From: an uncultured Candidatus Saccharibacteria bacterium
GTDB lineage: Bacteria; Patescibacteriota; Minisyncoccia; Phycocordibacterales; UBA9973
Assembly (NCBI GenBank): GCA_964631935.1
Contig: CAZWAV010000001.1
Coordinates: 4,979-68,978 of the forward strand
Direction of reading: 5' to 3'
Length of the DNA: 64,000 bases
The notes under the pieces were generated by a model. It was not told where the DNA came from and made no database searches. It worked only from the letters and a program-made list of their open reading frames with translations. Positions 48 to 21,446 of this stretch are shown here, one piece after another (the stretch's first letter is position 1; every line of letters begins with the position of its first letter). The position numbers and the translations under genes are program-made.

Positions 48-635
48 ATGAATAAACAAAAAATAAGACAGTTCCTACAGTCATTTGTTGCTATTCCAAT
101 GTTGGCAGTAACAACACCAATACTTGGGGTAACACCATTACCAATATCAACTGTAGCCATTAGTCAGAATATAGCTGCGATTGAAGCTCCTGTGATAACA
201 ACACAAGAAGCTGAAGCTCGCAAAAAACACGCAGAAGAAATAGATTCATTCCTTGAATCAAGAAATGCTCCACTTGCCGGCTACGGAGAAAAGTTCGTAG
301 AGGAAGCAGAGCAAAATGGTCTAGACTATCGTTTGCTTCCAGCTATTGCGGTCCGTGAGACTGGTGCTGGAAAAGAGCCATGTAAGAACCCAAAAGCTCC
401 AAACAACAATTTCGGTTGGGCATCATGTAAAAAAGGCTTTAGTTCAGTTGATGAATCAATTGAGCATATAGCCAAAACATTAAGTGGTAATAACCCAAAA
501 GTTAAGCACTACAAAGATGGCATGACGACTGAACAGATTCTAAAGAAATACAATCCTGATTCTATAATACCTGGCTACTCTAAGCAGGTTATCAAAATCA
601 TGAAAATGATTGATGATAGAGAAGATATAGCTTAA
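48..635 (+). CDS. Secreted peptidoglycan hydrolase-like protein (glucosaminidase/FlgJ-type domain)
   Basis: N-terminal signal peptide. Central segment LLPAIAVRETGAGK...NNNFGW resembles the glucosaminidase (PF01832-like) core. Followed by a bidirectional terminator. Confidence 0.5.
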   Translation: MNKQKIRQFLQSFVAIPMLAVTTPILGVTPLPISTVAISQNIAAIEAPVITTQEAEARKKHAEEIDSFLESRNAPLAGYGEKFVEEAEQNGLDYRLLPAIAVRETGAGKEPCKNPKAPNNNFGWASCKKGFSSVDESIEHIAKTLSGNNPKVKHYKDGMTTEQILKKYNPDSIIPGYSKQVIKIMKMIDDREDIA

Positions 636-663
636 TAAAAAATCCCCGAAAGGGGATTTTTTA
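636..663. terminator. Bidirectional rho-independent terminator
   Basis: Stem ATCCCC / loop GAAA / GGGGAT with an A-run before and a T-run after. Sits between convergent ORF 48-635 and dnaE. Confidence 0.8.
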
Positions 664-3600
664 TTATATTCTTTTGAAGCTTTCTATTGTTATGCTTCTT
701 TCGCCATTACGCTCTGAGACTTTACCAGAGAGAGCAATGATAACATCTTTAATTAAGGTATCTTTTGTTGACTCGAATAGTTTAGAAAAAACAACAGCAT
801 CTATGGAGCTTGAAAAGTCTGAAACTTTTATAAATGCCATGCGATCACCCTTTTTTGTTACAACTACACGTATATCGTCAACTATCGCAGCTACTGTTAC
901 AGGCATGCCGACTTTAACCTCTTTATTTCTTATTTTCAAAATTAATGTTCCGAATTTCTCAATTTTCTCTTTATAGCTATCTAATGGATGTCCAGAGATA
1001 TAAAGACCAAGTAAATCTTTTTCCCAAGTTAATTTTTCATTCATTGTCGCTTCTAATTGAGGTACAAGTGTTAATTTAGTCTCTATGCCACCAATTGATC
1101 CAAAAAGTGAATCCTGAGCTGCAACGCCGCGAGATTCTTTATTGAAGGCAAGTAATGTTTCTAAGTTACCTATAACCATATTTCTAGGCGCTAAATCATC
1201 CATAGCCCCAGATTTTGCCAAGGCTTCCACGGACTTCTTGTTTAGATTTTTGTGGTTGATTCTTTCAAAGAAATCAGTTAATGATTTAAAAGGCCCACCT
1301 CTTTTTCTCTCTTCTATAATTGAGTCCGCTATATCAGTACCGAGATTTTTTATAGTATATAGTCCGAATCTTATTGTTCTTCCTTCTGGCTGGTTACTTC
1401 CGACGATAACAGTGAACCCTCCAAAACTTTCATTAACGTTTGGTGGTAATACATTAATATTCATCTTTTGACATTCATGGACAATTTCAGCAACCTTTTC
1501 AACATCCCCTGATTCCGCTGTCATAATAGCGGTCATATATTCTACTGGAAAATTCGCCTTCATGTATGCTGTTTGATAGGCTACTCGCCCATAGCTTGCT
1601 GAGTGGGCCTTATTGAAACCATAAGCAGCGAAAGGTTCTATCTGGTTCCACAATTCAGTAGCTTTCTTCTTTGGCCATTTACTATGCTCTACAGCACCAT
1701 TTATAAAGTGGTCTTTTTGTTCGGCCATCTCTTTAGGTATTTTTTTACCAACAGCTTTACGGAATTTATCTGCTTCACCCCAGCTATAACCTGAAATATT
1801 AATTGCAATCAAAAGAAGATCATCTTGGTAAACAAGGACACCGTATGTCTGTTTAAGAATTGGTTCAAGGGCTGGATCTAGGTATTTTATAAGCTTGGCA
1901 TTGTGTTTACGCTCAATATAAAGAGGGATAAATTGCATTGGTCCGGGACGATAAAGCGCGACCATGGCGTTTATATCGTGTATGGTTGTAGCCTTTAGTT
2001 CTCTTAGGTAGTGTGTAATACCCGAGCCATTTAATTGGAAAAGACCCATTGTCTCTCCACGAGCCAACATCTCAAATGTCTTCTTGTCGTCTAGTGGAAT
2101 TTTATCTAAATCAACATCTTTATCTAAAATAGTTTTTACGAGTGATACTGCGTCAGCTAATATCGCCAAATTTCTTATTCCCAAGAAGTCGAATTTAGGT
2201 AGACCCGCATCTTCAATACTATACATATCGTATTGAGTGATAATATTTCCACCCTTAGGGTCAAATTGAATAGGTGAGAATTCATAAAGTGGCCTCGGAG
2301 CTATCACAATCCCAGCAGCGTGTACTGAGATATGTCTGACGCACCCTTCCATTTTTTTTGCTAGATCTATTATCTTTTTTGTATCTGGCTCTTTTTCATA
2401 AGCCTCTTTTAATTCAGGTACTATTTCAAATGCATGATCAATAGTCATGGGCATACCTTGAGAACCAAGAGGAATCATACTAGATATACGATCACCGACA
2501 GTGTATGGGTAGCCCAAGGCGCGAGCCACATCTCTGACTGAGCCTTTAGCCATCATAGTTCCAAAAGTACCGATCTGAGCTACTTTATCCTCACCGTATT
2601 TTTCTTTAGCATATGCAATGATTTCATCGCGTCTGTTATCAGCATAGTCCATGTCTATATCAGGCAATGATGGACGCTCAGGGTTTAGGAAACGTTCAAA
2701 AGGTAGTTTGTATTCAAGTGGATCAACATTTGTAATACCCAACAAATAGGTAGTTAATGATCCTGCGACACTTCCTCGAATATTTGTCAGTATTCCATGC
2801 TCACGTGCGTAACGAAGAAGGTCACCAACGACCAGGAAATAGGTCGGGTAACCTTTTTGTTTTATTATTCCTAATTCATATTCCAACCTATCTAAATATT
2901 CTTTAGATTGTGGAAGTTCTCGAAAAGTAAATCCATTATAAGCCTGCTCTCGAAGCATATTATCTCCGGTCGTACCTTCTGGAATAGGAAAATCAGGGAA
3001 GTATGCTTTACCAAGTTCTAGGTCGTATTCTTCACACATATCAGATACTACACGACTATTATCAACAGCTTCTGGTACATCTTTAAAATATTCTCTTGCT
3101 GTCTTCTCATCTATAAGAGAAAAGTCATCATCTGAGAATTCAAACTTACCAGTGTCTTTACCTTCGGCTCCAGTGTTTACCTGCAGTAGTGTGTGGTGAG
3201 CTTCATGATCATCACGGCAAGGGTAATGTGAATCTTGAGTTGCGACAGTAGGAATACCATGTTTTTTTGCAAGTTCTACAAGTGCAGTGCGGAGTTCAGC
3301 ATCCCCCTCGATGTGCGGATGAGATTGGATTTCTATAAAATAATTCTCTTTACCAAATGCTTCTTGGTGATCTTTAATAAGTTCATCTGCACGTTCCATG
3401 TTGCCAGCAAGTACAGCGCGCGAGAGCATCCCACCCATACACCCCGAAAGACATATTATTCCCTCACCATATTCTTTCAGTAATTCTATATCTACACGAG
3501 GCTTGTAATAATACCCTTCAAGGTTTGCCTTTGTGACTAACTTCATCAAATTCTTGTAACCTATTTTATTTTTCGCTAATAAAATCAAGTGGTAGCGTTT

Positions 3601-15015: not shown

Positions 15016-15318
15016 TTATTTTACTAACAGATTTTTTCCGTATACAGACATTGCGTCTAAGACTTTCTCTAACTTTGCGCCCTTTTTTGTAATAGAATAA
15101 TAAAGATTATTTTTCTCAATAATATTTTCACTCTCTAGATGTTTGATTTTATTTGTCAGTGTTCTTGTGCTGATGCCCTCTAATGATCTCTCGAGATCAG
15201 AGAATCTCATTTCATTTTTTAATAAGTCGCGGATTATAAGCATAGTCCATGGGTCAGACAATAGGCTAGCTACTTGAGCAATAGGGCAGTCCATATGGTT
15301 CTTCTTGTTCATAGACAA
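15016..15318 (-). CDS. HxlR-family winged-helix transcriptional regulator
   Basis: CPIAQVASLLSDPWTMLIIRDL...FSDLERSL..ISTRTLTNKIKHLE matches the HxlR HTH. Confidence 0.8.
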   Translation of the reverse strand: MSMNKKNHMDCPIAQVASLLSDPWTMLIIRDLLKNEMRFSDLERSLEGISTRTLTNKIKHLESENIIEKNNLYYSITKKGAKLEKVLDAMSVYGKNLLVK

Positions 15319-15411: not shown

Positions 15412-15942
15412 ATGATTAAATGGAATATAGATAACGCTCACTCAGAGATAGGCTTTAAGGTAAAGCACCTTGTTATATCTACTGTCCGTGGCAAGTTTAC
15501 GGCTTTTGAAGGGTCTATTACAGGAGAAGATGAAGATCTTACAAAGTCTAATATTACTTTTTCTGCTGACACAGAAAGCATAAATACAAATAACGAGATG
15601 AGAGATAATCACTTAAGGTCTGCTGAATTTTTCGATACAGCAAAATTCCCAAAATTATCTTTTAAATCTAAAAGTATATCGAAAAAGAATGACACAGAGT
15701 TTACTGTAATAGGAGATCTAACTATGCGCGGAGTAACCAAGGAGATAACTTTGAATGCTGTCTTTAATGGTGCTACTATTGACCACTACGGTGGACATGT
15801 TAAGAGTTTTGATATTATAGGGAACCTTAGTCGTGAAGCTTTTGGCTTGACCTGGAATGCTACACTTGAGACTGGTGGATTTGCCGTTTCGGATGAAGTA
15901 AAGTTAGATATTATTGCTGAATTTAAAGAAGCAAAAGAGTAG
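15412..15942 (+). CDS. YceI-like periplasmic/polyisoprenoid-binding family protein
   Basis: N-terminal WNIDNAHSEIGFKVKHLVISTVRGKF is the YceI family signature. Confidence 0.8.
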   Translation: MIKWNIDNAHSEIGFKVKHLVISTVRGKFTAFEGSITGEDEDLTKSNITFSADTESINTNNEMRDNHLRSAEFFDTAKFPKLSFKSKSISKKNDTEFTVIGDLTMRGVTKEITLNAVFNGATIDHYGGHVKSFDIIGNLSREAFGLTWNATLETGGFAVSDEVKLDIIAEFKEAKE

Positions 15943-16697: not shown

Positions 16698-16822
16698 ATT
16701 TCCTGTTTTTTTGGTTTAGCATAAAAGACTTTTAAATAAATCTTCTTTGCTAAACCAAAAACCTATATAAAATAACTAATGTTACAAGCATGATAACATA
16801 TTACACGGTTTTGTCAAAATTA

Positions 16823-16851
16823 CCCCGAACTTAGTAGGATATTCGAATGAG
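16823..16851 (-). repeat. Cassette repeat copy A (partial: tRNA-Asn-3'-like module only)
   Basis: CCCCGAACTTAGTAGGATATTCGAATGAG matches the distal module of copies C, D and E. Confidence 0.6.
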
Positions 16852-16873
16852 TATAATATTAACTAACAAATAG

Positions 16874-17602
16874 TTACTTTATAGTTTTTACCGAGTTAAT
16901 TAAAATTTCTTTATTATTTCTGACATAATTAAAACTGGCTTTACCTTGGATGTGTCCATCTTCATAAGTCATTGTTCCAGTTTTCATTGATGGGTTTACG
17001 TTTACTAAAGTTACATACCATGAACCACCTAAAACAGGTTTTTCTGGCGCAATAGTTTTAATATTGTCTCTGATATATTTTTCAACGACAATTTTATCAT
17101 CAAGTGCCTCACAATCTGTTTGTGACATTTGAAATCCAGGTGTGATCTTGGTGGCATCTTTATATACATATACTCCATCTCCTTTGTCTATCATTTCACC
17201 AAACAAAGCGACAGCACTACCTTCCCCAAATTCAATTTTCAATTGCTCTGTTACGTGCATTCCTTCTCCCAGTGACTCCCACAAAACATCTGCAATACGA
17301 CCACTAATCTTGGGATCCATTTTACCAACTGTTCCGTTAAATTTCCCAATCTTGCTATCCTTTTCGGCTGGAAGATTTTGATATTCGCCAATTACTTTAT
17401 CACCTAAAATACTCATTTTAAGCCATGCACGGTCAGTAAGGCCACTTGAAGTTTCTTTAGAGTATTGATAACACATATCAGTAGTTTCTGTTTTTGAAGG
17501 GTTTTGGGCTACTTCTTCTTGCTCTTTATTCCTTGAAAGAAAAACAAAGATCAAGATTATAACAACAATAGAGATAACTATGTAAGTTAATATTTTTTTC
17601 AT
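16874..17602 (-). CDS. Cassette gene 1: membrane-anchored extracytoplasmic protein, unknown function
   Basis: N-terminal TM anchor followed by a soluble domain. Flanked by repeat copies A and B. Confidence 0.5.
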   Translation of the reverse strand: MKKILTYIVISIVVIILIFVFLSRNKEQEEVAQNPSKTETTDMCYQYSKETSSGLTDRAWLKMSILGDKVIGEYQNLPAEKDSKIGKFNGTVGKMDPKISGRIADVLWESLGEGMHVTEQLKIEFGEGSAVALFGEMIDKGDGVYVYKDATKITPGFQMSQTDCEALDDKIVVEKYIRDNIKTIAPEKPVLGGSWYVTLVNVNPSMKTGTMTYEDGHIQGKASFNYVRNNKEILINSVKTIK

Positions 17603-17614
17603 ATATAAACTATA

Positions 17615-17708
17615 TCATTAGTCTTGAACTTATACTAAGGCAACAAAAATAACCACTATAAAATAAGCTTCAAAAAAGTGTCTAGAACTTTGGATAATGT
17701 TCTAATGG
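17615..17708 (-). repeat. Cassette repeat copy B (degenerate full-length)
   Basis: TCATTAGTCTTGAACTTATACTAAGGCAACAAAAATAACC ... GTCTAGAACTTTGGATAATGTTCTAATGG is collinear with the other copies. Confidence 0.55.
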
Positions 17709-17726
17709 CAATAATATTTTGACTAA

Positions 17727-18107
17727 TTAAAATTCAACTATTGGTTTGAATCCTCCGCACACGAAACGCTTCATATCGACTGGCATTGTAGAAGAGTCGA
17801 AATCTTTTATACTTGGATCACTCATTACTTTTTTGTTCACTTGATCTCTGTGTGCACGAGATTTATATACGATCCAGGAGAAAACAACAGTCTCATCAGC
17901 CTTAAGATTTGCAAGCTTAATAAATCCTTTCTGTGGCATTCCTTTCTTTACCCTTAGATCATCTCCTATGCATTCAAAATATTCTAACGCGCCATTTTTC
18001 TTCCACATCTTAGCTCCCCATTCTGCCATCTTCTTGTAAGCGGCTAAATCTTTCTTTTTTATAGGTATCACAAAACCATCAACATATTTTTTACTTTTTG
18101 TATTCAT
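17727..18107 (-). CDS. Cassette gene 2: DUF1428 family protein
   Basis: YVDGFVIPIKKKDLAAYKKMAEWGAKMWKKNGALEYFECIGDD matches the DUF1428 N-terminus. Confidence 0.6.
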   Translation of the reverse strand: MNTKSKKYVDGFVIPIKKKDLAAYKKMAEWGAKMWKKNGALEYFECIGDDLRVKKGMPQKGFIKLANLKADETVVFSWIVYKSRAHRDQVNKKVMSDPSIKDFDSSTMPVDMKRFVCGGFKPIVEF

Positions 18108-18147
18108 TTTATTTTGATAAAATTAATAATAACACCTGCTAATTTTA

Positions 18148-18238
18148 TCATAGGTTCGAAGTTCCTAAAATGGTAACAAAAAAATCATCATATTTCTAAG
18201 TTGATTTTTATATGCTCCGAACTTGGGATGATGTTCGG
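18148..18238 (-). repeat. Cassette repeat copy C (full)
   Basis: TCATAGGTTCGAAGTTCC...GGTAACAAAAAAATCATC-loop-GTTGATTTTT...GCTCCGAACTTGGGATGATGTTCGG. Confidence 0.75.
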
Positions 18239-18244
18239 CAGAAT

Positions 18245-18937
18245 CTAAGGTAGACATTGCTGGTAGATTGCAAAAATATCAGTTCCCAATATATCAAAAT
18301 AAGCTGTGTAACCAAATTCTGCGGTTGAATTATCTACTTGTGGTTGAATCTTAGATATAAAATCTGATGTATTTTGCAGGCTAGGACCTACACTGCTGCC
18401 ATTAGCATTCTGAATTCCACAATCATAAACTCTAGTGTTGTTAACCACTTTTAAATTCCTTATTTTAGGATTATTATTAATGAAAAATCCTCCTGTACTA
18501 TCAACACCAGGGATCCATTCTTTATTAAGAGTTAAAATATCAACTGCAAATATCCACTTATTATCCTCTCTTTTTATTGATTTTATTGCGCCTGGCTGTT
18601 TAATAAAACTTTCTTTATCAAATGACACTACAAAACCAGCGTCATTTTTTTTCGCCCACTCACTTATATTTGTACCATCAGCAAATTGAGCATCTTCAAA
18701 CCTTGATGTAGTATCAATACCAGCATCTTCAATTGCTTTAAGTTCTTCTTGGGACAGTTGGTCAGGTAATAATTTTTTTTCTTTAGAAGTAGAGTCTTGT
18801 ACTTGTGATAATTCTACTTTAGTTCCCAAGATCATATTAACCACTTTAGGCACCCACATTTTTTGAGTCGCTAATAAACCTAAACCTATAACAATTAAAA
18901 CAAGAAGAAAAATTCTAATAAATTTTATCAAATTCAT
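18245..18937 (-). CDS. Cassette gene 3: membrane-anchored secreted protein, unknown function
   Basis: N-terminal TM anchor followed by an extracytoplasmic domain. Confidence 0.5.
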   Translation of the reverse strand: MNLIKFIRIFLLVLIVIGLGLLATQKMWVPKVVNMILGTKVELSQVQDSTSKEKKLLPDQLSQEELKAIEDAGIDTTSRFEDAQFADGTNISEWAKKNDAGFVVSFDKESFIKQPGAIKSIKREDNKWIFAVDILTLNKEWIPGVDSTGGFFINNNPKIRNLKVVNNTRVYDCGIQNANGSSVGPSLQNTSDFISKIQPQVDNSTAEFGYTAYFDILGTDIFAIYQQCLP

Positions 18938-18949
18938 ATATAAATAATA

Positions 18950-19037
18950 TCATAGGTTCGAACTTCTACTAAGGTAACAAAAAATCACCTTATTTTTAAA
19001 GTGATTTTCTAGTGCTCCGAACCTGGGACGATGTTCA
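18950..19037 (-). repeat. Cassette repeat copy D (full)
   Basis: Collinear with copies C, E and G. Hairpin AAAATCAC / GTGATTTT. Confidence 0.75.
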
Positions 19038-19047
19038 AATTTATTTA

Positions 19048-19572
19048 TTATCGTCTTAGTAAAGCATCTACTGCAGCATCAAGGTTATCAAAAACATCTG
19101 ATTGATCCTTTTTACATTGGTCATATTTTGTATCACCTGGTCCACCATATCCTCCGCAGTTTGACCAACTTAGATTGAATTTTGTATTTCTGGTAGCGCT
19201 GTAGTTTTCAGTTACATACGTATATTCTCCACCCCAATGACCAGCACCACCATCAACAAAACTCGTAATGCAATACTTCCTGCCATTAATTATTTTTTCA
19301 GTTTTTGTTGCTTGAGGAGATTTAGAATCTGGTTCACAAATAAATGGGGTGTAGGGGGCTGGGGAGTTGTGAATTGCTGGTGGCCATGTTTGCGAGCTAA
19401 TATAGCCTCGATTTATAGCACCTGAGACAGTAGACAATATATTATTCTCATTAGTAGTTGTTTGATTTGTTGAACTAGGTAAAACAACTGTTCTTCGTTC
19501 GGGTTTCAATTGCAAATATCCTAATATTCCGACAATGAGTACTAAAAACACAATTATAATATTTTTATTCAT
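19048..19572 (-). CDS. Cassette gene 4: membrane-anchored secreted Cys-containing protein, unknown function
   Basis: N-terminal TM anchor. Six Cys residues in the mature part. Confidence 0.5.
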   Translation of the reverse strand: MNKNIIIVFLVLIVGILGYLQLKPERRTVVLPSSTNQTTTNENNILSTVSGAINRGYISSQTWPPAIHNSPAPYTPFICEPDSKSPQATKTEKIINGRKYCITSFVDGGAGHWGGEYTYVTENYSATRNTKFNLSWSNCGGYGGPGDTKYDQCKKDQSDVFDNLDAAVDALLRR

Positions 19573-19584
19573 GCATAAATTCTA

Positions 19585-19678
19585 TCATAGGTTCGAACTT
19601 CCACTAAGGTAACAAAAAATCACCCTATTTCTAAGGTGATTTTTATATGCTCCGAATTTGGGATGATGTTCGAATGAG
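19585..19678 (-). repeat. Cassette repeat copy E (full, with compensatory CC/GG change in hairpin)
   Basis: AAAAATCACC-CTATTTCTAA-GGTGATTTTT hairpin has a 10-bp stem. The covarying stem bases relative to copies D and G indicate selection on structure. Confidence 0.75.
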
Positions 19679-19710
19679 TTTACTTTATAGATAATAATGT
19701 AAAACAAAAA

Positions 19711-19743
19711 TACAGCTATGCTCCTTTGGGGGTATAGCTGTAT
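19711..19743 (-). terminator. Terminator of cassette gene 5
   Basis: ACAGCTAT...ATAGCTGT hairpin followed by a T-run on the minus strand. Confidence 0.55.
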
Positions 19744-19761
19744 TGTAGTGAATAAATCTCT

Positions 19762-19971
19762 TTACTGCGTGGGGGGCTCTGGGCCAAAATATTGAGTCCA
19801 TTCTTCCCTGGTACAATTGGGGCATTCGTGAAGGTGTGTTTTTCCACGACATGAATTGTCATGTTCCCATACATGACCACAATTATCACACTTGTGTCTG
19901 TGAAAACCATCAGGGCTTTCATAATTTACGGCGGATGATTGTGATTGAGGCAGTGTTTGATTGTTTGGCAT
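19762..19971 (-). CDS. Cassette gene 5: small zinc-ribbon-like protein (two CxxC pairs)
   Basis: HKCDNCGHVWEH...HECPNCTREEW. Preferred over the overlapping 19716-19922 ORF, which is in another frame. Confidence 0.4.
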   Translation of the reverse strand: MPNNQTLPQSQSSAVNYESPDGFHRHKCDNCGHVWEHDNSCRGKTHLHECPNCTREEWTQYFGPEPPTQ

Positions 19972-20116
19972 CTTTGATCGTTTTATTGTGTAAGAGTTAT
20001 TGATTCACCTCCACTCCCCAATAGAAGCAGAGAAGAATCAACAAAATTCACAATAAATAATCTCAAAGAACTACCATTGCTTGTACAATAGCATAAATAT
20101 ATTAATTTGTCAAATT

Positions 20117-20146
20117 GCTCCGTATCTGGGAGGATGTTCGAATGAG
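20117..20146 (-). repeat. Cassette repeat copy F (partial: tRNA-3'-like module)
   Basis: GCTCCGTATCTGGGAGGATGTTCGAATGAG. Confidence 0.6.
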
Positions 20147-20162
20147 CATTATAGAGTAAATA

Positions 20163-21131
20163 TTATACGCCAATTTTCGGTTCCCAATTTTTTACACTTG
20201 TATGTAGTATTTTCAGTTTAGAAAGCCAATTTATAACAAAGAAAAATTGCTTAATAAAAATTAAGAAAATAACTGTAGATAATAAATTGAAAAGTAAATG
20301 CATATTGGCAATTTGTTGAGTCACGTTACCTCCGAATCTGATAATTAAACTAGTAAGCATTGGTAAAAATGGATAAATTATTATTACTCCAATCACATTA
20401 AATAGAAAGTGGGCTAATGCTGTTTTCTTTGCTTCTATTTGCATCGGTATAGTAGCTAGAAGTGCCGTCGAAGTAGTTCCAATGTTTGCACCCAGCATTA
20501 ATCCTATACCTTGAGGCAAGCTGATTAAGCCTGAAATGGATAAAGCCAGAATCAGCCCCCCTGTGACACTACTTGATTGAAATATTGTTGTAATGAGTAT
20601 TCCTACAATAATAGCTATAGGAATATTAGTTATCTTTGATATTGCATTTAATATATCTGGGTTATCGGTAAGTGGTGCTACTACTTGTGTTATCAGAGAA
20701 ATACAAAAGAAAACTAACCCAAAATAAAAAACAGACTTACCATAAATACTATATTTCTTTCCAAATTTTAGAAGTAAGAAACCAAATATAATGATAAAAG
20801 GCGCAATTGCTGTGACATTAAATGCAATTAACTGAGAAGTAATAGTGGTTCCAATATTTGCGCCAAAAACAATACTCAGACTTTCATAAAAAGTAATAAT
20901 ACCAGCATTTACAAGTCCAACAGTCATCACAGTTGTTGCGGTACTCGATTGAATGATTGAGGTTACAGCCGTCCCAGTAAGAGTTCCTATTATTGGATTT
21001 TTAGTTAAACGTTTTAAAAGAGTTTTTAACCTAACACCTGCAACTTGTTCAATCTGCCTGCTAAATTTGTTTATACTAAATATAAAAATAAGCACTAAGG
21101 CTACAACAGTGACAGTAATTTGAAATATCAT
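20163..21131 (-). CDS. Cassette gene 6: Na+/phosphate cotransporter family (PF02690-like) membrane protein
   Basis: Two internal repeats carrying QSSTATT / QSSSVTG and GANIGTT signatures. Confidence 0.75.
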   Translation of the reverse strand: MIFQITVTVVALVLIFIFSINKFSRQIEQVAGVRLKTLLKRLTKNPIIGTLTGTAVTSIIQSSTATTVMTVGLVNAGIITFYESLSIVFGANIGTTITSQLIAFNVTAIAPFIIIFGFLLLKFGKKYSIYGKSVFYFGLVFFCISLITQVVAPLTDNPDILNAISKITNIPIAIIVGILITTIFQSSSVTGGLILALSISGLISLPQGIGLMLGANIGTTSTALLATIPMQIEAKKTALAHFLFNVIGVIIIYPFLPMLTSLIIRFGGNVTQQIANMHLLFNLLSTVIFLIFIKQFFFVINWLSKLKILHTSVKNWEPKIGV

Positions 21132-21143
21132 TTATACATTATA

Positions 21144-21206
21144 TCAAAGGTTCGAACTTCTACTAAGGTAACAAAAAATCACCTTATTTCTAAAGTGATT
21201 TTTCGA
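21144..21206 (-). repeat. Cassette repeat copy G (proximal module plus hairpin, fused directly to the genuine tRNA-Asn 3' end)
   Basis: TCAAAGGTTCGAACTTCTACTAAGGTAACAAAAAATCACC...GTGATTTTT, then the tRNA. The hairpin also serves as the tRNA terminator. Confidence 0.75.
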
Positions 21207-21208
21207 GG

Positions 21209-21280
21209 CTCCGGAGGCAGGGATCGAACCTGCGACCAATCGATTAACAGTCGATTGCTCTACCGCTGAGCTACTCCGGA
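21209..21280 (-). tRNA. tRNA-Asn (anticodon GTT)
   Basis: Manual fold: acceptor TCCGGAG/CTCCGGA, D-arm GCTCAGCGGTAGAGC, anticodon loop CTGTTAA, T-arm GGTTCGATCC. Confidence 0.85.
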
Positions 21281-21283
21281 ATT

Positions 21284-21411
21284 TGTATTCGGAAGTAGCT
21301 AAGCGGAACCGCTGGTCACAAATATTTTTCTGTTGAAAAATTTCGCGACCCCGACTCGGCACCTACGTGCCTGCGCCTTTGAAATGCTAGGCATTTCAAC
21401 TACTCCGGAAT
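21284..21411 (-). ncRNA. GC-rich structured ~125-nt element co-transcribed 5' of tRNA-Asn (function unknown)
   Basis: The first 11 nt (TTCCGGAGTAG) are identical to the tRNA 5' end. Internal hairpins are TTGAAATGC/GCATTTCAA, GGCAC/GTGCC and AGCG/CGCT. A closing helix joins the 5' and 3' ends. GC content is well above that of the flanks. Confidence 0.35.
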
Positions 21412-21417
21412 CTTCAA

Positions 21418-21446
21418 ATACTAACAAAAAACCACCAAAAAAGCAA
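21418..21446 (-). promoter_or_regulatory. Promoter for structured element + tRNA-Asn (TTGCTT-17-TAGTAT)
   Basis: Minus-strand hexamers with a 17-nt spacer. The predicted TSS coincides with the first nucleotide of the structured element. Confidence 0.45.

Follow-up and report, generated by a model that had tools for sequence, protein, structure and literature searches.

A conserved structured element with gene-derived arms at tRNA and tmRNA gene ends of Patescibacteria: a possible selfish insertion upstream of tRNA-Asn

Introduction

Several kinds of bacterial sequence occur as structured repeats or attach themselves to the ends of RNA genes. The Rickettsia palindromic elements (RPE) and the Correia/NEMIS, BOX and REP/BIME repeats are short, non-coding, multi-copy sequences that form stable stem-loops; tyrosine integrases insert elements into tRNA genes, at integration sites that follow a sublocation rule; the attC sites of integrons are recognized as folded single strands; riboswitches, T-boxes and attenuators are multi-helix leaders; and the RtT RNA of Escherichia coli tyrT is a repeated structured RNA. 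Here, we analyze a 131-nt element located immediately 5' of tRNA-Asn(GTT) in a 64-kb stretch of patescibacterial DNA (contig CAZWAV010000001.1), the whole of which we refer to as the window; the element and the tRNA are both on its minus strand. The element belongs to a previously undescribed family, new to Rfam 15 and to the literature that we searched, whose members fold around a conserved core and carry arms copied from the adjoining gene. We tentatively interpret it as a selfish structured insertion element, which at this locus would form part of the tRNA-Asn transcript, as a leader to be cut off by RNase P.

Results

The element and its family

When folded in isolation, the 131-nt stretch 21281-21411(-) forms a five-helix junction with a minimum free energy (MFE) of -54.1 kcal/mol, compared with -30.8 +/- 3.4 kcal/mol for 200 dinucleotide shuffles, none of which was as stable (z = -6.8). 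In the following, O denotes a sense copy of the end of the neighboring gene, O1 the upstream sense copy in the window, and O' an antisense copy. The order in the window is promoter, O, core, AGCGG, O', a 6-nt linker and an intact tRNA-Asn, the element ending 6 nt ahead of the repeat that opens the tRNA gene on the same strand. The helix that closes the element is made of sense and antisense copies of the gene end: O1 corresponds to tRNA positions -1 to 10 and AGCGG to positions 14 to 18, and O' is antisense to positions -1 to 19. O' has two possible partners, which are O1 plus AGCGG within the element, or the real tRNA 5' end 6 nt downstream.

The original prediction, made from the sequence alone, had described much of this architecture. 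Its three hairpins (a 9-bp hairpin with a CTA loop, GGCAC-GTAG-GTGCC and AGCG-GTTC-CGCT) are all present on the minus strand (P2, the variable hairpin of P3, and P5 in Table 1), and the 11-mer that it regarded as a copy of the tRNA 5' end (TTCCGGAGTAG) is an exact one, with only two occurrences in the 64 kb (21410-21400 and 21281-21271). The proposed TTGCTT-17-TAGTAT promoter is there as well, and its motif is conserved at equal distance before tRNA-Asn or the element in about 10 related genomes. The following points required correction: the longest and best conserved hairpin, P4, had been overlooked; the long-range helix of about 10 bp exists, with one C.C mismatch, but its antisense strand is 19 nt long rather than 10; and the GC excess, described as conspicuous, is real but modest (0.47 for the element versus 0.37 for the window).

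The P4 hairpin was used as the anchor of a pattern for scanning metagenomes, and this pattern matched at least 120 metagenome stretches; the family statistics given here rest on 80 metagenome loci among those matches. Model R1, built from copies of the tRNA-Asn type, to which that of the window belongs, gave 95 matches in these 80 loci (91 of the copies do not overlap, and several contigs have two to four), and it recovered the canonical copies, whose layout is described below, at E = 1e-20 to 1e-5. Conversely, model R2, built exclusively from 25 canonical copies, matches the window at 21290-21393(-) with 67.5 bits and E = 1e-18. This is the sole real match in the 64 kb, and the window has a single copy despite having four tRNA genes, the other three being without the element.

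Every copy has a core in the form of a three-way junction, ..GAAAG-NCGGAG-(variable hairpin)-CGAGN-CGG-GGUCGCGAGAUUUUUC-loop-GAAAAAUACUUGUGACC. The features that define this core, namely a base helix GNC/GN'C, a purine-rich loop, a variable hairpin and a GGUCGCGA..UGUGACC hairpin with two G.U pairs, were all found in the window copy. Across the family, elements are about 110-190 nt long, and the helix enclosing the core is not conserved but made locally from O' and O of the adjoining gene end. The structure of the core is supported by covariation. In the R1 alignment, 92.5% of the cells are paired, versus 41-48% when the partners are slid, and 40 of the 47 pairs have changed on both sides. It should be noted that this alignment was fitted to the model; an independent check by MAFFT of 25 canonical copies and RNAalifold gave the same helices. 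P4 is paired in 97.9% of the cells (94 distinct sequences), its two G.U pairs are kept in 88 and 71 of these 94, and one of its pairs covaries between G-C and A-U (59:33). The middle pair of the P3 base helix covaries too (CG 32, AU 25, GC 16), and the stem of the P3 hairpin varies while its pairing is kept.

The gene divergent from the window element encodes HPF/RaiA, and the relatives of this HPF carry the names Patescibacteria, Paceibacterota or Nomurabacteria. An exact protein look-up for the metagenome loci found two of eight on record, one of them named Parcubacteria/Nomuraibacteriota. The hosts of the family are Parcubacteria/Paceibacteria-type Patescibacteria. One element-carrying contig also has a LOOT RNA (L135, 339-459(-); Rfam RF03000, 82 bits), which is positionally unrelated to the element.

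Several known RNAs and systems were considered and rejected. Against Rfam 15, the window gave tRNA alone at threshold, with only chance-level rows of 9-17 bits over 21288-21410 at E <= 10, and 10 canonical copies gave no match. SRP RNA, tmRNA, 6S RNA, T-box, RtT, riboswitches, known ribozymes and group I or II introns were dismissed on these grounds, as was the raiA motif, which had been considered because raiA/HPF is the divergent neighbor. A second tRNA is excluded by ARAGORN, which calls only tRNA-Asn at 21207-21280, in agreement with the earlier view that the element is not SRP RNA, tmRNA or another tRNA. The inverted ends are suggestive of a retron msr/msd, but no reverse transcriptase follows, the next open reading frame (ORF) being a Na/Pi cotransporter. 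Guide RNAs of the IS110 bridge or TnpB/IscB omega type were set aside, no such genes being present within 3 kb of the 91 copies or among the 20 ORFs nearest the window element; moreover, there is no fixed order of guide and scaffold, because the core is preceded by the antisense arm in the 3' copies and followed by it in the window type. Finally, searches of viral contigs, phage records and plasmids gave no matches, and a phage or plasmid origin was therefore rejected.

Linkage to RNA genes and origin of the arms

The family is strongly linked to genes of stable RNAs. Of the 91 non-overlapping copies, 69 (76%) have a tRNA or tmRNA gene at a distance of no more than 300 nt and without exception share its strand; 54 are downstream and 15 upstream, and about 17 tRNA types plus tmRNA are involved. 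One further copy follows a tmRNA that was detected by Rfam alone. In L097, copies occupy the spacers of a tRNA operon, and these must be transcribed. Most copies are at the 3' ends of tRNA or tmRNA genes and have the canonical arrangement tRNA, hairpin, O', core, O. The window copy belongs to a subfamily with the mirror-image arrangement, located 5' of tRNA-Asn. Among 42 downstream copies, none of which has a promoter match, the hairpin of the canonical layout resembles a terminator, T run included, in 23.

The arms of the canonical copies derive from their own locus. O' is antisense to the 3' end of the adjoining tRNA over up to 21 nt. O repeats as much as 32 nt of the locus in direct orientation, beginning in the T-loop and in some copies continuing past the tRNA end into the trailer. 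The median match length is 8 for the antisense arm and 6 for the repeat, versus 5 and 5 in mismatched tRNA/element pairs, for which the 95th percentiles are 8 and 7. In 30 cases, O' fits the tRNA more closely than it fits the displaced copy; the preference is reversed in 13. A distance of 100-210 nt separates the two repeats, and neither an ORF nor cargo lies in this interval. Because the interrupted gene end is present twice, the host gene remains intact.

Orthologous tRNA-Asn loci

Comparison of 80 HPF-anchored genome loci revealed both occupied and empty sites. The element is found upstream of tRNA-Asn in L011 and L030, and in L077 upstream of a tRNA-Asn that is interrupted after position 35. 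In contrast, no element is present in L015 and L014, which carry the promoter motif 7-8 nt before tRNA-Asn, or in L008 and L013, which carry it 25-50 nt upstream. The motif TTGCTTTTTT..TTTTG(A/T)TAGTAT precedes tRNA-Asn by 7-8 nt in L015, L014 and L009; in L011 and L030, it precedes the element by the same distance. Since relatives have the promoter and tRNA-Asn without the element, the latter is an insertion bounded by the 11-nt repeat; as judged from the empty sites, the upstream repeat O1 holds, relative to the promoter, the native place of the tRNA 5' end. L009 has, at about 1079-1140(-), an unrelated 42-nt insert with a small hairpin (CTGAT-ATG-GATCAG) between TTCTGGAGTAG and the TTCCGGAGTAG of the tRNA, which is either a deletion remnant or a second type of insert at position 10/11.

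Compensatory substitutions in relatives, which had been named beforehand as a check, were found in every hairpin in an alignment of four full copies, as expected of a conserved structured element. Those in P2 are A-U to G-C in L077, G-C to A-U in L011, and, identified by eye, a change of the outermost pair from U-A to C-G in L030. In six of nine loci of the tRNA-Asn type, O1 exactly matches the 5' end of the tRNA at its locus, even though the acceptor sequence varies among them (GGAG, GGGG, GUGG, GGGAG), and AGCGG is invariant in all nine. In L030, O1 and O' have jointly diverged from the tRNA sequence. This tracking pattern could be explained by selection, by template-switch correction of a quasi-palindrome, or by repeated insertion. 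The gap between O' and the 11-mer is 3-12 nt in the relatives (measured one base short, which gives 5 for the window), and its sequence is not conserved.

The interruption in L077 is a group I intron (98-362(-); Rfam RF00028, 73.8 bits) that splits tRNA-Asn after U35; ARAGORN misses the gene. Overlapping the intron match is a 115-residue ORF (294-641(-)) that extends upstream towards the 5' half of the tRNA. Introns have been reported in patescibacterial tRNA-Asn genes with insertion site 35/36 (PMC13011429), and the position in L077 agrees with this site.

Arrays and copies at protein genes

L156 contains an exact tandem duplication of a 186-nt unit, and in L154 a genome-specific variant of the core adjoins tRNA-Ser, tRNA-Ile and tmRNA, with arms that match each neighbor. 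In L105 (5018-5154(-)) and L109 (3482-3630(-)), a copy lies directly behind the zinc-ribbon C-terminus of a topA-like ORF; a second copy of the last ~90 nt of this ORF, with its stop codon, lies on the far side of the core, and the two copies have diverged, a configuration resembling the gene ends left duplicated by integrating prophages. In L063 (3505-3619(-)) and L085 (3485-3595(-)), a weak but homologous core is located in frame inside fmt, the gene for methionyl-tRNA formyltransferase, adding about 23 residues that the fmt genes of the window and of L077 do not have. Its 15-bp inverted arms differ between L063 and L085 and yet stay complementary, and there is no direct repeat. A second conserved module, GAAGACCUUGAG..hairpin..GAAAGGUGUACUG..CCUGUAAGG.., lies between similar tRNA-derived arms (Table 1). 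As it is often in tandem with the core studied here, the arrays are modular mosaics.

Predicted folding of the precursor

Folding energies were calculated with nearest-neighbor parameters for naked RNA, which ignore the tertiary structure and modification of the tRNA, kinetics and proteins. On this basis, the MFE structure of the full precursor is predicted to be an alternative fold of -95.4 kcal/mol, versus -82.8 kcal/mol for the element and the tRNA folded apart. In the alternative fold, O' would pair with the real tRNA 5' end and O1 with the 3' acceptor strand of the tRNA, leaving the anticodon and T arms unchanged; the hairpin of O' with the tRNA 5' end is by itself predicted at -24.1 kcal/mol. 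The same fold is predicted in all six evaluable orthologues, with differences of 2 to 18 kcal/mol, and its mirror image in 11 of 14 canonical 3' copies. For growing transcripts, the switch of partner is predicted after 10-13 nt of the tRNA have emerged. The long-range helix described by the original prediction thus applies to the isolated element, whereas the full precursor is predicted to swap it for pairing with the tRNA. The idea put forward with it, of a structured leader controlling tRNA-Asn, gains support from this alternative fold, itself a prediction.

Neighboring features and the cassette array

The features of the transcription unit are listed in Table 1. A generic promoter scan did not include TTGCTT-17-TAGTAT among its listed sites, nor did a generic terminator scan include the AAAAAUCACUUUAGAAAUAAGGUGAUUUUUU hairpin. 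This hairpin closes the promoter-element-tRNA unit and recurs at cassette junctions further downstream.

Downstream of tRNA-Asn, at 16800-21215(-), about six short cassettes follow one another in an array. They measure 468-858 bp between junctions, and most contain one small ORF of unknown function. The sole Pfam match inside the array is DUF1428 (17727-18107), the last unit contains the Na/Pi cotransporter, and HxlR (15016-15318) and YceI (15412-15942) lie just outside. Up to four junctions, including the tRNA's own 3' end, repeat a terminator hairpin plus GTTACCTTAGTAGAAGTTCGAACC, and six repeat a degenerate version of the tRNA-Asn sequence from the T-loop to the 3' end (TTCGAACATCATCCCAAATTCGGAGCA). 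This layout resembles tandem integration at the tRNA T-loop. A contig from another sample (L001, 1-569, compared with 20636-21204 of the window) has the same element and tRNA and a different cassette right after the tRNA 3' end, and several metagenome contigs (L001-L007) end at or within a few bases of that end. The 3' array is therefore strain-variable and assembly-breaking. As for the suggested tie between the element and this array, a model search with filters off found no family core in the cassettes, and the two have no core in common.

Table 1. Features of the element and its transcription unit in the window, and loci of the second module in metagenome contigs
Feature	Position	Strand	Description	Basis
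Promoter-like site	21418..21446	(-)	-35 TTGCTT 21446-21441, 17-nt spacer, TGT-extended -10 TAGTAT 21423-21418	Read from sequence
Predicted transcription start	~7 nt downstream of -10, 1-5 nt from the element's first base	(-)		Sequence-based prediction
O1 (TTCCGGAGTAG)	21400..21410	(-)	Sense copy of tRNA-Asn positions -1 to 10	
P2 hairpin	21379..21399	(-)	UUGAAAUGC-CUA-GCAUUUCAA (DNA TTGAAATGC-CTA-GCATTTCAA), 9 bp; confined to the tRNA-Asn subfamily	MFE fold
P3	21353..21377	(-)	3-bp base helix GGC/GUC, purine-rich internal loop and variable hairpin; part of the family core	
P3 variable hairpin	21371-21358	(-)	GGCAC-GUAG-GUGCC; P3 aligns to canonical model R2	MFE fold
P4 hairpin	21314..21350	(-)	GGUCGCGAAAUUUUUC-AACA-GAAAAAUAUUUGUGACC; 16 bp, two conserved G.U pairs, bulged A; most conserved part of the family	
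P5 hairpin	21302..21313	(-)	AGCG-GUUC-CGCU; 5' arm AGCGG copies tRNA 14-18, 3' arm is the start of O'	
O' (CCGCUUAGCUACUUCCGAA)	21288..21306	(-)	19 nt antisense to tRNA-Asn -1 to 19; 17/19 standard pairs	
Long-range helix	21410-21400 with about 21298-21288	(-)	One C.C mismatch	
Linker UACAAA	21282..21287	(-)	Between O' and the second 11-mer copy	Read from sequence
tRNA-Asn(GTT)	21207-21280	(-)	Plus -1 T (21281) of the direct repeat	ARAGORN; Rfam tRNA 72.7 bits
Terminator-like hairpin AAAAAUCACUUUAGAAAUAAGGUGAUUUUUU	21173..21203	(-)	After the tRNA; repeat families D3 and I1	Read from sequence
Second-module loci	L105 about 1520-1660		L105 (-); L139 about 330-400 (+); also L124, L093, L089, L135	

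Discussion

The interpretation that we favor, tentatively and at slightly less than even confidence, is that the element is a selfish structured insertion element, which in the window is co-transcribed with tRNA-Asn. It draws on the family membership of the window copy, the covarying structure, the linkage to tRNA genes and their strand, the locus-specific arms, the presence and absence among relatives, the arrays, and the copies in and behind protein genes. The family would persist as a selfish DNA-level sequence, mobile or recombining, that may be moved by recombination via the folded single strand or by homologous exchange in which the duplicated gene end would provide the homology. In the window, the promoter of tRNA-Asn would drive transcription of the copy, which would form a 5' leader of about 125 nt that has to be cut off by RNase P. 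Any effect at the RNA level would be a side effect with at most a modest cost, in which the antisense arm could trap the tRNA 5' end and the upstream copy would substitute for it in the acceptor stem. Fold-back priming, template switching at the palindromic T-loop and Campbell-type circle recombination were considered as candidate routes to the sense-antisense-sense arrangement of the arms. A relic of recombination at the tRNA end, one of the possibilities raised by the original prediction, comes closest to the wider evidence, the insertion being dispensable and its arms being copies of the gene end; it is no mere relic, however, because the core is strongly conserved.

Several observations weigh against a selfish insertion. 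We know of no mechanism that yields a sense plus an antisense copy of the target at each insertion. The search within 3 kb of the 91 copies revealed no recurrent transposase or recombinase, only housekeeping genes recurring there, and the 20 ORFs nearest the window copy (~20 kb) include no transposase, recombinase or integrase. The core is conserved across hosts whose HPF proteins are only 61-80% identical, a feature that fits a functional RNA better than a short-lived repeat family. RNA function would also require that all tRNA-linked copies be on the strand of the tRNA, as they are, and the copies in the operon spacers of L097 must be transcribed. The way in which O1 and O' follow the local acceptor sequence could reflect selection on pairing with the tRNA rather than history. 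Searches of viral contigs, phages and plasmids gave no matches to the element.

Because O' is predicted to capture the tRNA 5' end, a regulatory switch and a released small RNA both stay live rivals. As a cis-regulatory leader or switch, which we consider rather unlikely, the core would sense a metabolite, a protein or temperature and thereby tune the yield of mature tRNA-Asn: pairing of O' with its own 5' copy would leave the tRNA free for normal processing by RNase P, pairing with the tRNA 5' end, the acceptor stem then being completed by the upstream copy, would lead to a dead-end product, and read-through transcripts of other tRNAs would be tuned likewise by the 3' family. The alternative fold predicted for the whole precursor, for the orthologues and, as a mirror image, for most of the 3' copies is what such a switch would use, as is the early change of partner; the layout is aptamer-like, with a multi-helix junction closed by P1 and with conserved junction nucleotides and G.U pairs; and O1 and O' track the local acceptor, O' favoring the tRNA over the displaced copy. 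Yet all these energies are predictions for naked RNA, we know of no ligand or protein partner of the core, and the element is missing from the same promoter-tRNA-Asn unit in close relatives as well as from the three other tRNA genes of the window. Furthermore, half of the 3' copies sit behind terminator-like hairpins, O1 and O' of L030 have changed together away from the tRNA, and copies in fmt, behind the topA-like ORF and in tandem or mosaic arrays would be unexpected for a dedicated regulator. Unlikely, in our view, is the more general proposal that the core is a sensing or protein-binding RNA domain that chooses which of two identical strands completes the tRNA, amounting to a riboswitch-like control of maturation at many tRNA and tmRNA genes of Patescibacteria; in the window, such a core would set whether RNase P meets the true 5' end of tRNA-Asn or a decoy acceptor stem containing the upstream copy.

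We similarly doubt that the element is a stand-alone small RNA or a component of a ribonucleoprotein, with a functional core and with tRNA-derived arms forming a minihelix, similar to the acceptor and T stems, for excision by RNase P and 3' processing. In the window, cleavage by RNase P at the tRNA 5' end would free an RNA of about 125 nt adopting the five-helix fold, and the marked stability of the freed element, the conservation and covariation of the core and its constant orientation along the tRNA strand are all in keeping with this. So are the arms of the 3' copies, which reproduce the 5' strands of the acceptor and T stems, and the 3' strands of the T and acceptor stems to the discriminator or CCA, and the presence in arrays of different cores between the same kind of arms. 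Such an RNA is nevertheless hard to reconcile with 3' copies that have no promoter in front and frequently follow terminator-like hairpins, with arms that are often decayed or partial, with the dispensability of the element in close relatives, and with copies within coding sequence; nor was a gene for an associated protein found near the 91 copies.

Quite improbable is a folded single-strand recombination site belonging to a tRNA-anchored cassette system, comparable to the integron attC or the attP hairpin of the CTX phage, in which pairing of O' with O in single-stranded DNA would present a double-stranded tRNA-gene site, and exchange by a recombinase acting in trans would result in the order tRNA, X, O', core, O. 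There is indeed a parallel between O, X, O', core, O and attI, cassette, inverse core, attC and core site; the fold is strand-specific, with G.U (G.T) pairs; the direct repeat, beginning in the T-loop, leaves the gene restored, like those of classical tRNA and tmRNA integration sites; and there are tandem arrays, together with a strain-variable cassette array on the other side of tRNA-Asn that has repeats from the T-loop to the 3' end. However, no integrase is encoded near the 91 copies or among the 20 ORFs nearest the window copy, the inserted unit is just 100-210 nt without cargo, the ORF cassettes of the window are without the core, and the copy in fmt has no direct repeat. Because the arms are specific to each tRNA, moreover, one element could not move between targets.

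[quoted passage not shown]

The genomes of Patescibacteria are tiny and contain very little spare DNA; in these bacteria, numerous tRNA and tmRNA genes have a conserved, covarying fold of RNA or single-stranded DNA at their ends. If the family is selfish DNA, it has a way of inhabiting essential genes without killing the host, through duplication of the gene end and an antisense copy hidden in its own stem, and its insertion must then copy the target in the sense as well as the antisense orientation. Were it a functional RNA, it would be, to our knowledge, the first leader or trailer in competition with a tRNA over the tRNA's own acceptor strand. In practical terms, these elements break metagenome assemblies at tRNAs and can mislead tRNA annotation and the prediction of islands and att sites.

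Comparison with known systems

Among the described systems, RPE, Correia/NEMIS, BOX and REP/BIME, as compared by their descriptions, share with the present family a length of ~100-150 nt, the absence of coding capacity, multiple copies, stable stem-loops and a patchy distribution, in a reduced genome. As in RPE and similar repeats, there are in-frame copies in protein genes (fmt in L063 and L085), copies beside RNA genes, and modular or mosaic arrays. Unlike these repeats, the element has neither conserved terminal inverted repeats nor a fixed target duplication; this also sets it apart from miniature inverted-repeat transposable elements, the arms being different at each locus and the repeats ranging from ~7 to ~90 nt. 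Its closing helix is formed by the sense and antisense ends of a neighboring gene, 76% of the copies are next to tRNA or tmRNA genes and always on the same strand, and the core is kept across distant hosts.

With the tRNA-directed elements of tyrosine integrases, the family has in common a direct repeat from the T-loop to or beyond the 3' end that keeps the gene intact (up to 32 nt in canonical copies), the use of tmRNA and of protein 3' ends (the topA-like ORF with its ~90-nt duplicate), and tandem accretion at one tRNA. It differs in that the unit of 100-210 nt contains no ORF, no integrase and no cargo between the repeats, includes an antisense copy of the site, and is conserved as a folded, covarying strand. 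The window shows the mirror-image version, with an 11-nt repeat at the tRNA 5' end instead.

The integron attC and CTX attP provide a parallel in the order site, cargo, inverse site, center, site, in strand specificity, and in what would be recognition of a folded single strand. The element is without the R''/R' consensus (RYYYAAC / GTTRRRY) at the ends of its arms, the ORFs scanned (near the 91 copies, and the 20 nearest in the window) gave no link to IntI or Xer, and the pattern of conservation is the reverse of that of attC, with a conserved center and variable arms.

Riboswitch, T-box and attenuator leaders resemble the element in having a multi-helix junction with conserved junction nucleotides and a 3' strand of P1 that is able to pair downstream. 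Here, in contrast, the downstream "expression platform" is a tRNA and not an mRNA, and the element is multi-copy, dispensable, without an Rfam match and mostly 3' of genes: only 15 of the 69 tRNA-linked copies are upstream, and orthologous leaders without the element exist. The RtT RNA of E. coli tyrT is likewise a repeated structured RNA in tRNA transcription units, presumably freed by tRNA processing; the present family does not match its model (RF00391), comes from a different phylum, and has arms that mimic the tRNA end.

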